Virus record (IMG/VR): IMGVR_UViG_3300020125_000159
Location: 28,696 to 92,695 of that record
Source: a virus
Strand: one strand, 5' to 3'
DNA length: 64,000 nt
In this document: positions 26,782 to 64,000 of the stretch, in pieces
Numbering within the stretch: the stretch's first letter is position 1
How the letters are laid out: every line of letters begins with the position of its first letter
Program-made: the position numbers and the translations under genes
The notes under the pieces: model-generated
Databases searched by the model: none
The model's input: only the letters and a program-made list of their open reading frames with translations
Told to the model about the DNA's origin: nothing

Positions 26782-28989
26782 TTAACGAAGACGTCTTGAA
26801 AGTCCTAACATTTTACTGACTATTGAATTTACATTATTCAATCGTGCAGTATGTCGTCCTGGAGGCCTAATCCTTCTATGGTCAGAGATTATTCCTTCTA
26901 TTTGTACTGTATCATTCATAGAGAATCTGAATGTCATTTGTCCACGACCTACAGAGTCTGAGATACGGATTTGGGCTAATACCTTTTGTGCATGACGGAA
27001 CTCTAACGGTTCAATCATGTTTATACTTGGTCTAGGTAATCTATGTTGTGATTCAGTAATACCTACAGTATCGCCTATGAAACGTCTAACTCGTCTACTT
27101 ATAGATTCGGTAATATTCATTTTTGTCGTAGTGTAAATCTTTGTTGTGGGAGTAAGGTCAGTCCAAATACTTCTAAATATTTTCTTTATTCGTGTGGCAA
27201 TGTCAGATATTGATATACCTGTTTCTATTATGATTCTGGGTATAATCCTTGTTTTTGATAAAGCACTAGATATTGATATAGTCTGTGTTGATAGTGTTAT
27301 TTTGTATAGTTTTCGTGTTAGTATTGACTCTAATGACGCAATGGTTTCTGTCAGACGTCTATTATACTTACCTAGTTTTGTTAATAATTCAGATATCGTT
27401 ATAGTCTGCGTAGAGAGTTTTGGTTTAGCATTTCTTAATTGAGAATCCGTTATCGATATAGTGTCCGAGATTGACCTGGTTTTTAGTGGTCCACTACCAG
27501 CTAATGCGTATAGGAGAGTCCGTATTGATGTTATTCTAGCTTTTAGTCCATACTTCAGAGTTCTGACTGTGGATAATAATCTCTTTCTTAGATAATATTT
27601 GAGTGTCCTTTGTGTCCCAGCAATTCTTTTTCTAAGATAATATTGTAACGTTCTTTGTGCTACAATCCTAGATTTTAAAGAATATTTTACAGTTCGCTGT
27701 GTTGATAGTAACCTAGCTTTTAATCCATATTTGACGGTTCTAGCAGTAGAGGCTAGTCTTTTCTTTAATGAATATTGTAATGTGCGTGCAGTACTTGCTA
27801 ATCTCTTCTTTAGACTATATTGTAACGTTCTTTGTGTTGTTAAAAGTCTTAATTTTAATGCATATTTGACTGTCCTCTGCGTTGTAAGTAGTCTCTTTTT
27901 TAATGCGTATTTTATTGTTCTCTGTGTTGATAACAGTCTAGCCTTTAAACCATATTTGATTGTTCTAAGTCCTACTCTTCTAGCTTTGAGTCCGTAGATT
28001 AGAGTTCTTTGGGTACTTGCTATTCTTTTCTTTAGGGCATATTGTATTGTGCGCTGTGTTGATAACAGCCTTTTATGTAGATAGTATTTTACTGTTCTAA
28101 CTCCTGCAATTCTTGATTTTAAAGCATAGTTTACGGTTCGTGTGGTACTAGCCAGTCGTTTTTTTAATGCATAATTTACAGTCCGCGCAGTACTGGCTAA
28201 TCTCTTATGAAGAAAATATTTTACCGTTCTAGCAGTACTGGCTAATCTGGTTTTTAATCCATAATTTATAGTTCTAGCAGTAGATAAAAGTCTCTTCTTT
28301 AACCCATATTTTATAGTTCTTGCAGTACTGTTTAGGTTTGAAACTGTAGTGAATACTAATGTATCTGTTGCTGCGCTAATGAATGAAGCACATGTTGTTG
28401 CACTTGCTTCGGTAGTACCGTCAAAATAGAATGTATCAGTGAATGCAGTTGAGGCTCCCTGAGTTGTCTTAAATATTATCTCAAATACTATTACGTCACC
28501 GACCTGAGTTGTTACTGCGGAACCTGAAAATGTCCCGCTTAGTGCTACCTCTGAAGTACTAGCCTCTGAGAGTGTTATTCCAGTTGCACTATTAAGTATA
28601 TTTCCAACTTTTGAACCGCCAGCACTTGGACGCCACACATAACATGTTACGTTAGCGGTTGCACTTGTAGTTGTAGGAAAGTTTGCACTTGCAGAACTTT
28701 CCTTCGCGGCAAAAGAAAAAGTCCATGTCTGTGCGCTTATAGACGTAGAAGATAAGGGAGGACTTACAAACTTAGTAAAGTAATAATTATTTGCACTAGT
28801 ATTTGCGAGAGAGGTGACTGCTATACTTGTCTGTAATGTACCAATAGTGCTATTCATCAGACGGTTTACTGTTTGGGCATCACCGCCAGTACTAGTAACT
28901 ATAGTTAGTGCAGACTGTGTGGCTTGAGGAAGTGTTCCGTGTCCTACTAATGTGTTACTTGAGGCATGAAGATATAATTTTGTCGCTAT
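26782..28989 (-). CDS. Virion protein with a cationic 15-aa repeat array; probable ATA start
   Basis: The frame is open 44 codons upstream of ATG 28857 to ATA 28989 (ATKLYLHASS...); about 18 RLASTARTVKYALKK-type units. Confidence 0.65.
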   Translation of the reverse strand: MATKLYLHASSNTLVGHGTLPQATQSALTIVTSTGGDAQTVNRLMNSTIGTLQTSIAVTSLANTSANNYYFTKFVSPPLSSTSISAQTWTFSFAAKESSASANFPTTTSATANVTCYVWRPSAGGSKVGNILNSATGITLSEASTSEVALSGTFSGSAVTTQVGDVIVFEIIFKTTQGASTAFTDTFYFDGTTEASATTCASFISAATDTLVFTTVSNLNSTARTIKYGLKKRLLSTARTINYGLKTRLASTARTVKYFLHKRLASTARTVNYALKKRLASTTRTVNYALKSRIAGVRTVKYYLHKRLLSTQRTIQYALKKRIASTQRTLIYGLKARRVGLRTIKYGLKARLLSTQRTIKYALKKRLLTTQRTVKYALKLRLLTTQRTLQYSLKKRLASTARTLQYSLKKRLASTARTVKYGLKARLLSTQRTVKYSLKSRIVAQRTLQYYLRKRIAGTQRTLKYYLRKRLLSTVRTLKYGLKARITSIRTLLYALAGSGPLKTRSISDTISITDSQLRNAKPKLSTQTITISELLTKLGKYNRRLTETIASLESILTRKLYKITLSTQTISISSALSKTRIIPRIIIETGISISDIATRIKKIFRSIWTDLTPTTKIYTTTKMNITESISRRVRRFIGDTVGITESQHRLPRPSINMIEPLEFRHAQKVLAQIRISDSVGRGQMTFRFSMNDTVQIEGIISDHRRIRPPGRHTARLNNVNSIVSKMLGLSRRLR
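27500..28330 (-). repeat. Coding tandem repeat, 45-nt/15-aa K/R/Y-rich unit
   Basis: R(L/I)(A/L)ST(A/Q)RT(V/L/I)(K/Q)Y(A/G/S/Y)L(K/R)(K/A) repeated. Confidence 0.85.
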
Positions 28990-61418: not shown

Positions 61419-63798
61419 CTAGAGTTGGATGGGTTGTTTAATGTTAACTAATCTAGCTTGGGCGATTGCAGCGTACTCGGACGATATTTCTATTCCAATT
61501 CCTTTTCTATTCAGCATGTCGGCAGCTATCATTGTCGTTCCCGAACCACAGAATGGATCTAGAATTGTATCGCCTTCTCTACTGCCTAGCATTATGAGAT
61601 ATGAACACAACTTGATAGGCTTTATTGTTGGATGACTGTTAAATCTTGGCGTTTCTCCTCTCTGGAATGGATTATCAATTGGTGTTTGCCGTCCATCATT
61701 TACTTTCTTTGGTTCAAAATATGAATCGATTAGGCCCATGTTCCGCTCACGTTTCGAAGGCTTAGGTGTGATGATAAAAGGGAATGTTGTTTCGAACCAC
61801 TTATCAAGCGAGAAAAATCTGCTGAAATCATTACCTAATATAGAATCAGATATACAAACATTCGCAGGAAAGCGGCCTTTTTGATCTGGTGAGAATTTGA
61901 ATAATATATCTGATTTCTTAAGAACAGTAGGCTTTCTATCACCTTGCTGTACTTTTAATTGATTCCACGTATGTAGACCGCTTTGTTCACTTTCTGAATA
62001 TCCTGAACTAATCGCATCGTCTTCATTCTGATAGGGAATCCTACAATCATCAAGCCATGTAATGCCTTTACGATTCGCTAATGCTTGGTCAACATAGGAT
62101 TTCTCGCTGAGTGGTCGCATACATACCAAGCAGATTTCTAGAGCTGGTTTAAACTGAGCTCCGCAGTACGCGCCGTCTAGGGCTTTGGCCTGTTCGGTTG
62201 CCGATACTGTTAATCTATGATCTTCTCTGCGTCCTATTTTATACCACGTTGAGCCGCTTCTTTCTTTTCCGTCTGGTGCTTTATACCTTCCAATGATTTC
62301 TCTCTCTGCTTCTTCTCTTTCTATCAATTCGTCAAAGCGGTTATCTAGACCGAACAATGTCTTTAATTTCTTATAAATTTCTAACGATGGTAATAAGAAT
62401 CGGTGATTCAATTTATCGCCTAAGAGATCAGAAGCGAAATTGCCGCCTTTAATGGAATATCCTAAATATTCATTTATGTCCTTAAATGTCAATCCTTTTT
62501 CGGCGCGTTTCTGATTGATATATTCTCTAAATTCAGGATTGTATGTTTTACCGTTTCTTTTGTCGGCAAGCTTTGAGATTGAAGCAGCTTTTGGGAACCC
62601 TGAATTTCCTGTCAGAAATATCTTACCATTTCGGCGCGCCACAAAACAACCCGTCGAAACAGTAGGACAGAATACTAAGCCTTCATAATATTCTCTGCTA
62701 ACAGTGGCCAGAGTGGTTTTATAAGATTTGGGAAATGTTCGTATTTCTTGTGATGTTGGTTGCTCGCAAATAACATAAGATTGTTGAGATTGTTGTTGGT
62801 TGGATCGTGATCCATATGATGAACCACTTCCATTCTTAATAATGGCCTGCCTATCGCCATGGCTACTAATATTCTGTGTTCCATTACATAACCATCCTTC
62901 CTTGCCATGGATTTGTACTCCATGGGGCAGCGAATGTATTTTACGCCAACATAATTTCCCTTTGTTTTGAAATATGTTACGCCACCTTTCCAAGCACGAT
63001 TCTTTTCGCCCATCATTGCTTCTCGTTGTCTCTGTTTCTGTGCTTCGGACATTTTGTGAATATGTTTGCCGCTTGCTAGAAGACCTTTCCAGATATTTAC
63101 CTTCTGTCTGCAACTTGCCGAACAATATATTCCCATGGCTCCTCTGCCCTTTCTTCTTGTCATAGAACGAAACATTAGAAATGGATTCTTGCAATGTTGG
63201 CAAAGCCCCCAAATAAGGCACACTGATCTTTTGTTCGAGTGTTTCTGCGAATTGGAATAATATTCTTCCTTCTGATTCAACAAGGCAACGGTGGTTTCTG
63301 GTGACGATTTGATCTGTGTAATCTGATTTAATTCGGTAAACGGTATCTTTGATTTGATTATATTCTTCCCATTTGGTCGGACTTTCAAAATGATATTCGT
63401 CATTGCTTATAGAATATACAAGTATCTCCTTACCTTTAAATGCTATGGTGTTACGGTAGCGTTCCCACCCATCTTTGGTAAACACTTCTGTATCTTCTGA
63501 CAAACAAGCATACGTCCAATAAATAGAAGAAAATCCTGTTTCAAATCCTGCATCTTGAAGATTGACAATCATTCTCGACAACACGTCCTGACGTGGGGAG
63601 GACATGATAAAGGCGAATGCACCTGGCTTTAGGACTCGTAAACACTCTTTCCATGTCGAAGTAGGAATAACAACTTTATCCCAGTTTTTATTCATGAAGG
63701 AATAGCCGTACGCGGTAAGGTGGATCAGTCACCATGCAATCTATACTATCGTTTGGCAGTGGTATATGATTTGCATCACCGTGAATGATTCCACCTAT
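61419..63798 (-). CDS. Beta-class N4-C/N6-A DNA methyltransferase, interrupted by a +1 frameshift, an intein and an HTH insertion (possibly a pseudogene)
   Basis: IIHGDA...DCMVTDPPY (63798-63715) is out of frame with YGYSFMNKNWDK...RVLKPG...SGFPK...HPTIKP...LDPFCGSGTT...GIEIS. Confidence 0.85.
62604..63506 (-). mobile_element. Intein (301 aa) in the methyltransferase
   Basis: YA|CLSEDTEVFTKDGW (block A), VTRNHR (block B TxxH), VFCPTVSTGCFVARRNGKIFLTGN|S (blocks F/G). Removal restores YWTYASGFPK. Confidence 0.92.
62675..63403 (-). CDS. HNH homing endonuclease encoded in the +1 frame inside the intein
   Basis: CQHC...YCSASC, GEKNRAWKGG, GYVMEHRILVAMAIGRPL..EVVHHMDHDPTNNNLNNL...HKKYEH; true start uncertain. 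Confidence 0.88.
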   Translation of the reverse strand: MTNIILKVRPNGKNIIKSKIPFTELNQITQIKSSPETTVALLNQKEEYYSNSQKHSNKRSVCLIWGLCQHCKNPFLMFRSMTRRKGRGAMGIYCSASCRQKVNIWKGLLASGKHIHKMSEAQKQRQREAMMGEKNRAWKGGVTYFKTKGNYVGVKYIRCPMEYKSMARKDGYVMEHRILVAMAIGRPLLRMEVVHHMDHDPTNNNLNNLMLFASNQHHKKYEHFPNLIKPLWPLLAENIMKA

Positions 63799-64000
63799 TC
63801 CCCCATCACCTCCATATTTAATACGTTAATTCATAAGTTTACCTAATATAAAAATAAATCTGATCGCGTGATTTTGGGGAATCTATCACATGATTATCCG
63901 TTTTCTAAAGTCGAGTGTGCTAGTCGAAAGACTGGGGGATCTGGGGCGCTTATAGATTCGTAATAAATCAGCGGTCATTCTTACGGTTAAAATAAATAAA

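Follow-up and report, generated by a model that had tools for sequence, protein, structure and literature searches.

A predicted dual-coded methylase intein with an HNH homing endonuclease gene nested one base out of step in uncultured phages

Must the homing endonuclease of an intein be a domain of the intein protein? The question is raised by a stretch of 64,000 nucleotides (nt), hereafter the window, taken from the end of a 92.7-kb viral record that comes from a rhizosphere metagenome (IMG/VR record IMGVR_UViG_3300020125_000159, positions 28,696 to 92,695). On its minus strand, an N6/N4 DNA methylase gene is interrupted by a predicted intein of 301 amino acids (aa), and most of the same DNA, read in the +1 frame, encodes an HNH nuclease. 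A reading of the letters made without database searches (the sequence-only reading) had proposed that splicing discards a meaningless linker while the nuclease is made separately. After the analyses described here, we consider it very probable, on sequence evidence, that the locus is a bipartite dual-coded selfish element, combining a splicing intein with a separate HNH_3 homing endonuclease gene (HEG) that lies one base out of step. If so, the answer is no, and a homing nuclease can exist as a protein separate from the intein.

The intein occupies residues 64-364 of a 758-aa methylase open reading frame (ORF) that is open throughout, has its own ATG and matches PF01555 (E 2.2e-25) and phrog_67 (E 3e-31). 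Its translation starts with CLSEDTEV, carries TRNH as block B and ends in TGN before SGFPK, placing the insertion at IYWTYA/SGFPK (the slash marks the junction); the splicing blocks first read from the letters (C1, TxxH and a terminal GN followed by Ser) were all recovered. Across 62 homologous inteins at the same site, C1, H72, C280, T299, G300 and N301 are invariant, block B position 69 is Thr or Ser, the C-lobe motif VWC..V.TGAFVARRNGK.F.TGN is conserved, and the +1 residue is Ser at all loci but one (L082, with Thr). An AlphaFold2 (AF2) model based on the alignment of these homologues showed beta strands in residues 1-100 and 261-301, with a predicted local distance difference test score (pLDDT) of 89-97 and about 95 in the C-lobe, and no secondary structure in residues 111-250 (pLDDT 41-50). 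The top Foldseek matches of the model were solely inteins and Hedgehog Hint domains, the best being the solved intein PDB 6zgq (E 1.8e-5, TM 0.80 on target), which the N-terminal 90 residues also match by sequence (E 5.7e-4). As modelled, the methylase frame encodes a complete Hint-type intein, with an N-lobe of ~105 aa and a C-lobe of ~43 aa. Library searches found no family match for the frame-0 linker between the lobes. The middle of the intein is thus as featureless as originally described, and disordered, although over ~150 aa and not the ~190 aa first given; it is a mere shadow of the HNH gene, a disordered filler.

The nested ORF starts at intein codon 34, inside the N-splicing domain, and stops 25 codons before the intein end, spanning the block-B region and the entire intein middle. 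The zinc finger, GEKN..WKGG motif and HNH nuclease attributed to it beforehand are borne out by its translation (CQHC...CSASC, GEKNRAWKGG and EHR..GRPL..VHH.DHD..NN) and by its match to Pfam HNH_3 (PF13392; E 6.3e-7, 29.4 bits, gathering cut-off 24.8); among the HNH families of PHROG the best match was phrog_10730 (E 4.5e-16). Residues H176, H195, H196, N204, N215 and H218 and the zinc ligands are invariant in 28 homologues, and the AF2 model of the nuclease has a mean pLDDT of 80.7. Both frames are open over more than 700 nt, as the sequence-only reading had noted, with zero stops over 729 nt. The third frame of the same 903 nt contains 24 stops in 300 codons, which gives a probability of ~1.6e-9 that 243 codons stay open by chance. 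Although selection in this part acts mainly on the intein frame, residues 20-52 of the nuclease (window 63248-63346, minus strand), lying over block B, are modelled as two confident helices (pLDDT 93-95), which either form a genuine DNA-binding module or result from the influence of shadow conservation on the model. Coordinates are collected in Table 1.

Table 1. Positions in the window of the intein, the nested nuclease and neighbouring features
Feature	Position	Strand	Basis or remark
Intein, 301 aa: C1 ... T69xxH72 ... C280 ... T299-G300-N301, then Ser+1	62604..63506	-	Translation, 62 homologues, Hint fold
N-terminal splicing domain, residues 1-105, blocks A and B	63192..63506	-	AF2, 6zgq match, codon-phase entropy
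Frame-0 linker, residues 106-258 (153 aa), S/Q/G/K/R-rich	62733..63191	-	pLDDT 41-50, no family match
C-terminal splicing domain, residues 259-301, blocks F and G, ending TGN	62604..62732	-	AF2, conserved motif
Ser+1, first C-extein residue (SGFPK)	62601..62603	-	Translation
Nested HNH homing endonuclease ORF, 242 aa, frame +1 relative to intein; ATG at 63403, TAG 62675-62677	62675..63403	-	
Zinc ribbon of nuclease (C68, C71, C94, C98)	63110..63202	-	Invariant in alignment A1
GEKNRAWKGG motif of nuclease	62981..63010	-	Invariant G132, N135, W138, G140, G141
HNH_3 catalytic core, residues 176-218 (H176, H195, H196, N204, N215, H218)	62750..62878	-	PF13392, invariant columns
Host N6/N4 DNA methylase ORF, 758 aa with intein	61419..63695	-	PF01555, phrog_67
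DPPY motif of methylase	63715..63726	-	Out of frame with the 758-aa ORF
7-nt insertion CGCGTAC directly after DPPY	63708..63714	-	Comparison with homologues
Sigma-70-like TTTAAA-16-TATATT, lead only	63413..63440	-	Ends 10 nt before HNH ATG

The arrangement belongs to a large family. Database searches gave 323 relatives of the nuclease ORF at 40-65% identity, answering the question of whether the +1 ORF is conserved in homologues. A scan of IMG/VR confirmed 237 loci, 80 of which were fetched for analysis of their layout, and in 79 of these 80 an HNH ORF lies at +1 within an ORF of 440-1190 aa whose third frame is closed. Frame 0 is free of stops in each of the 62 distinct IMG/VR inteins that share the methylase site, whereas their third frame contains 9-44. 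The same layout was found in 10 of 13 loci from GTDB genomes, mostly on contigs of metagenome-assembled genomes (MAGs) of many phyla; the best GTDB match, a 1.9-kb contig of a Bathyarchaeia MAG, is not evidence of a host. When 1.84 billion representatives were searched with a profile of the N-splicing domain, 276 clusters at 50% identity matched at E<=1e-30. Single-protein scans of IMG/VR with the window nuclease, its C-extein and the mini-intein hosts P0171 and P0172 gave no match.

Selection on the two frames was measured as nucleotide entropy by codon phase and by counts of stop avoidance. At both ends of the intein (residues 1-100 and 271-301) the most variable position is the third, or wobble, position of the intein frame; in residues 106-255 it is the first position of the intein frame, which is the wobble position of the nuclease frame. 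Entropies for the three phases were 0.66, 0.45 and 1.04 in block B, 1.46, 0.53 and 0.45 in the nuclease core (GEKN..WKGG region), and 0.49, 0.20 and 1.69 in block G. Across the family, purifying selection thus acts on the intein frame at both ends and on the HNH frame in between, the frame-specific pattern that had been predicted from the window alone.

Stops are avoided reciprocally. Within the nuclease body, frame 0 acquires a stop only when a nuclease codon ending in T precedes a codon starting with AA, AG or GA. Such a T was present in none of the 3364 risk contexts of the family, compared with 26.5% T elsewhere, and in none of the 48 contexts of the window, compared with 34% (P 1.8e-9). 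Conversely, a +1 stop under the N-splicing domain (codons 46-100) requires an NTA codon before a codon starting with A or G. This combination occurred once in 480 cases, versus 39.9% NTA before codons starting with C or T (Fisher p 2e-59); NTA rates in unconstrained flanks were 29% and 18%. Likewise, the Ile of the block-B Q-I-V is never encoded by ATA (0/50), a triplet that makes up 42% of the Ile codons elsewhere in the splicing lobes. This reciprocity indicates that the nuclease frame genuinely extends back into the N-splicing domain. Over the first 60 nuclease codons, most of the constraint comes from the intein. Several +1 stops do occur across block B of a nuclease-free mini-intein (L129), the sole usable DNA example and thus anecdotal.

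Among the 120 methylases nearest to the C-extein, 111 have no intein and show IYWTYA/SGFPKA contiguous between the same flanks as in the window; the intein splits a host site that is whole in those alleles. Both intein boundaries fall at this site in 130 of the top 150 matches to the N-domain, and 115 of those 130 inteins measure 320-359 aa. In ten mini-inteins (146-213 aa) at the site, a short linker joins the lobes and the nuclease stretch is missing. At two further loci (L112:1301-1897 and L174:1301-1828) an internal deletion removes the catalytic core of the nuclease, both frames still being open; these look like recent stages of degeneration. Empty, mini, nuclease-deleted and full alleles are therefore all present, the set of states expected from a homing cycle. 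None of these N-domain matches has a full nuclease in frame with the intein.

Further variants were noted. At L103 and L105, AT-rich foreign DNA with a long third-frame ORF interrupts intein and nuclease from ~600 nt after the intein start, and both the intein frame and the nuclease frame end at the insertion. In the mini-intein L129 (L129:1301-1732, ~144 aa), codon 7 is an in-frame stop; the element may be a pseudogene, or the stop may be recoded. In P0128 (298 aa), the zinc-ribbon part is in frame with the intein N-domain for ~70 residues and a shift follows at an A-run, reflecting either a genuine change of frame or an error in the homopolymer.

Protein splicing, the choice of start, the activity and target of the nuclease, and homing are all inferred here, and they would fit together as follows. 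The intein presumably excises itself from the methylase precursor, joining IYWTYA to SGFPK, and between the lobes the methylase frame would contribute only a disordered, stop-free tether. Translation of the nuclease would most likely begin internally, either on the methylase mRNA or on a transcript that itself starts inside the gene. During co-infection it would cut or nick intein-free methylase alleles, and repair would then copy intein and nuclease together into the empty allele.

For the family, the sequences favour internal initiation over frameshifting as the source of the nuclease, because its ATGs adjoin an upstream +1 stop and are accompanied by pentamers resembling the Shine-Dalgarno (SD) sequence and by AGG-AGY coding. 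An ATG lies no more than 4 codons after the +1 stop that opens the ORF at 27 of 61 loci (13% expected, P 4e-9), and an SD-like pentamer lies 5-16 nt upstream of the start at 20 of 62. In one subgroup, the Arg-Ser preceding ATG46 is always encoded as AGG-AGY (7/7), giving AGGAG at -8. Stops in the +1 frame are common in intein codons 0-46 (4.8 per 100). The case is weaker in the window, although its ATG at 63403 directly follows a TAA. Three relatives (L012, L014 and L023) have an ATG 10-12 nt after AAGGAG or AGGAG, and the Tyr-Asp encoded there corresponds to Tyr-Ser in the window.

Relatives of the nuclease also occur without an intein. Ten IMG/VR loci (L062, L063, L067, L070-L073, L075, L079 and L080) carry an out-of-frame HNH relative in intein-free methylases of the same family, and the isolate Cupriavidus sp. 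UYPR2.512 has the same intein-free, loop-borne arrangement (L094:1888-3810). In these methylases YG-SGFPK is contiguous, and the nuclease sits in a variable loop between SGFPK..K and W.GWG.ALKP, the methylase frame being open throughout. The loop-type nuclease is shorter, running from the zinc ribbon onwards at 45-55% identity, without the 5' part that overlaps the N-domain. In a tree of the HNH core (100 columns, quick search) the loop-type sequences are nested among intein-borne ones, mostly in the subclade of the window nuclease; most forks of this tree are weakly supported and its root (L092) is arbitrary, and we claim no direction of transfer. With rather more doubt than belief, we suggest that a single HNH lineage resides either in a splicing intein at YG/SGFPK or ~15-20 codons downstream in a non-spliced, ShiLan-like surface loop, and has moved between the two at least once. 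If true, this would link two phenomena that were published separately in 2025 and provide a natural series of loop-borne or free HEG, mini-intein, dual-coded intein and nuclease-deleted intein, in which the nuclease ORF, by overlapping block B, would be locked to the splicing domain.

The state of the host gene in the window differs from that of its relatives. Homologous methylases run uninterrupted through DPPYG..FMGKKWD, whereas the window methylase is broken by 7 nt after DPPY. Contigs from two further soil studies (X2 and X3) cover nearly the whole intein with zero differences and zero indels, and the 7-nt insertion is present in X2 record 10 and X3 record 18, making three assemblies in all. 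Since the same sequence recurs in independent metagenome contigs, the insertion is real and not an assembly error. Judged from its sequence, the window's methylase gene may be inactive or split in this lineage and, given the break after DPPY, selection for splicing may have lapsed there. Intein and nuclease are intact nevertheless. In the broken N-terminal region (63688-63813, minus strand), the DPPY-bearing segment, a peptide of 36 aa, has no canonical start in its own frame; an ATA codon is preceded by the sequence GGAGGTGA.

Several observations weigh against a working dual-coded element. No Pfam intein model matches the intein, TIGR01445 reaching only E 0.07 (14.1 bits, cut-off 24.5), and the penultimate residue is the invariant Gly300 and not the His of block G. 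Some splicing-competent inteins lack the penultimate His, however, so Gly300 is compatible with membership. Structural support for the nuclease fold is weak, the best match being I-HmuI at Z 4.7 over residues 127-227, and Foldseek found no significant match for the whole nuclease model. In the window, AAGGAG lies 22 nt upstream of the HNH ATG, which is poor spacing; a candidate hairpin bridging this gap was rejected (-2.4 kcal/mol, z 0.5, like shuffles), and sigma-70-like sites are not enriched (2 in the region versus 4.5 expected in shuffles). To these the broken host methylase must be added, as well as the mutual relatedness of the loci, by which the family statistics overstate independence.

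Could the offset of the two frames be an artefact, two compensating indels hiding an ordinary in-frame HNH intein? Beyond prior plausibility, the partly in-frame zinc ribbon of P0128 is the one observation in favour, and we regard it as refuted: the offset is common to 62 distinct loci from different samples, sequencing errors cannot produce the stop-avoidance signature, and the identical, indel-free contigs from independent runs close compensating errors as an explanation, which the sequence-only reading had listed among the possible refutations. The insertion might instead be a tolerated, non-splicing insert like the ShiLan domain described below, with vestigial Hint-like ends. The penultimate Gly, the lack of a Pfam intein match and the related methylases that tolerate the same nuclease in a non-spliced loop would fit such an insert, but the reading is highly improbable in view of the invariant C1, H72 and N301, the Ser or Thr at +1, the strong frame-0 purifying selection on the lobes, the confident Hint fold and the retention of mini-inteins at the site; furthermore, unlike the loop insertions, this one splits the conserved motif formed by YG or YA and SGFPK.

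Two other alternatives concern expression of the nuclease. A programmed +1 ribosomal frameshift would yield a fusion of N-extein, intein N-domain and HNH, and such a product would need the +1 frame to be open across the N-splicing domain, as it is; the window also lacks a well-spaced SD. Against this, starts directly after an upstream +1 stop are far above chance, many of them with an SD at 8-10 nt that results from synonymous choice, +1 stops are common in intein codons 0-46, and the loop-type relatives make their nuclease without any N-domain. A slippery motif was not noticed in the conserved block-B DNA, in which no systematic search was made. We find frameshifting very unlikely, by a shade less so than a non-splicing insert. 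More serious, although still on the unlikely side, is the view that this phage has inherited the element as a relic without present function, which is compatible with the family-level explanation. Under this view the methylase is already a pseudogene, a well-spaced SD and ATG have been lost, and the frames persist because too little time has elapsed. The 7-nt insertion in three independent assemblies points this way, as does the comparison with L012, L014 and L023, since where these have their ATG 10-12 nt after the SD the window has Tyr-Ser, a +1 TAA and its next ATG 22 nt from the SD. Conversely, all invariant residues of intein and nuclease are intact in the window, neither frame has a stop over the 729 nt, and the 758-aa ORF is open with its own ATG. 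HEGs are, moreover, typically weakly expressed, which counts against the relic reading.

The general design of the proposed dual-coded element, an out-of-frame nuclease in an intein, was already published in 2025-26, in precedents closer than the one mentioned in the sequence-only reading. Gosselin, Arsenault and Gogarten (bioRxiv 10.1101/2025.01.02.630785) described actinophage inteins with the nuclease in a separate frame and proposed that they originated when a free-standing HEG invaded an intein. As in the window, the splicing domain is in the extein frame, the nuclease is nested in another frame of the same strand, and the extein-frame translation of the nuclease stretch is unstructured. 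Their nuclease, however, is EndoVII-like and in 'frame 3', the hosts are terminase, polymerase, capsid and ThyX genes of actinophages, and the HNH inteins in that work are in frame. The window nuclease belongs instead to HNH_3, has a zinc ribbon and lies at +1, and its host gene is an N6/N4 methylase from uncultured phages of soil and water; where the ORF overlaps block B, reciprocal stop avoidance can be measured. Phillips et al. (bioRxiv 10.64898/2026.09.14.751524) reported a cyanobacterial dnaX intein with a LAGLIDADG nuclease in a +2 ORF and frame-dependent omega, and proposed secondary invasion of a mini-intein; that preprint credits the first notice of this intein to Gorbalenya (1998). 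The dnaX intein resembles the window element in the overlapping frame of its nuclease, in frame-dependent selection and in the coexistence of full, mini and empty alleles, and differs in nuclease type (LAGLIDADG versus HNH), frame (+2 versus +1) and host (a cellular replication gene versus a phage methylase). The out-of-frame nuclease types published for inteins are EndoVII-like, LAGLIDADG and VSR-like, HNH having been found solely in frame in those surveys.

The precedent first mentioned, an out-of-frame HNH in actinophage methylases, does exist: the ShiLan domain and the Pacc40 insertion represent a hidden out-of-frame HNH in actinophage DNA methylases (Arsenault et al. 2025, PMC11855218; Gosselin et al. 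2023, PMC9957025). They share with the window a phage DNA methylase as host, an out-of-frame HNH and a host frame that is stop-free through the insertion, and the ten IMG/VR loci and the Cupriavidus isolate carry relatives of the window nuclease in exactly this intein-free way. Unlike the window element with its full Hint lobes, ShiLan has no splicing domain and its insert is retained in the protein; the insertion sites also differ. A tblastn search with the window nuclease against 50,697 GenBank phage records gave one close match and no actinophage at E<=1e-5, and hence no sign of close homology to the ShiLan nuclease, ShiLan itself not being directly compared. For the separate parts, the solved structure closest to the splicing domain, in sequence and in fold alike, is the AceL NrdHF intein (PDB 6zgq), a split or mini intein without nuclease that is annotated as class 3, whereas the window intein keeps Cys1 together with the invariant C280 and Thr299. 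I-HmuI (PDB 1u3e), an HNH nuclease of a phage group I intron and the best, but weak, structural match, belongs to the same Pfam family HNH_3 but is intron-encoded and free-standing within the intron. Absent from those papers are a true intein whose nested HNH gene occupies another frame, a widespread uncultured-phage family of dual-coded methylase inteins, a block-B overlap with reciprocal stop avoidance, and a nuclease lineage that occurs both in inteins and in loops within one gene family.

With splicing and homing carried out by two polypeptides from one stretch of DNA, the dosage of the nuclease would be uncoupled from that of the host protein. The hundreds of loci could serve as a test bed for the origin of inteins by invasion of a mini-intein by a nuclease, the full, mini, nuclease-deleted and empty alleles for the homing cycle, and the family as a whole for the sharing of constraint between two frames. 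Since gene callers label such nucleases as free-standing and the inteins as 'decaying' or leave them unrecognised, surveys undercount elements of this kind. The models also suggest that compact splicing lobes can tolerate a disordered insert of ~150 aa, which may be useful for intein engineering.

The Curtobacterium pusillum plasmid pCPAA3 (L092:1568-3067) carries a 500-aa ORF, not flanked by a methylase, whose C-terminal part is an in-frame relative of the nuclease core and may represent a free-standing or fused form. P0122 (1312 aa) is a methylase with two inteins, a LAGLIDADG intein upstream and a member of the window's intein family at residues 481-585.

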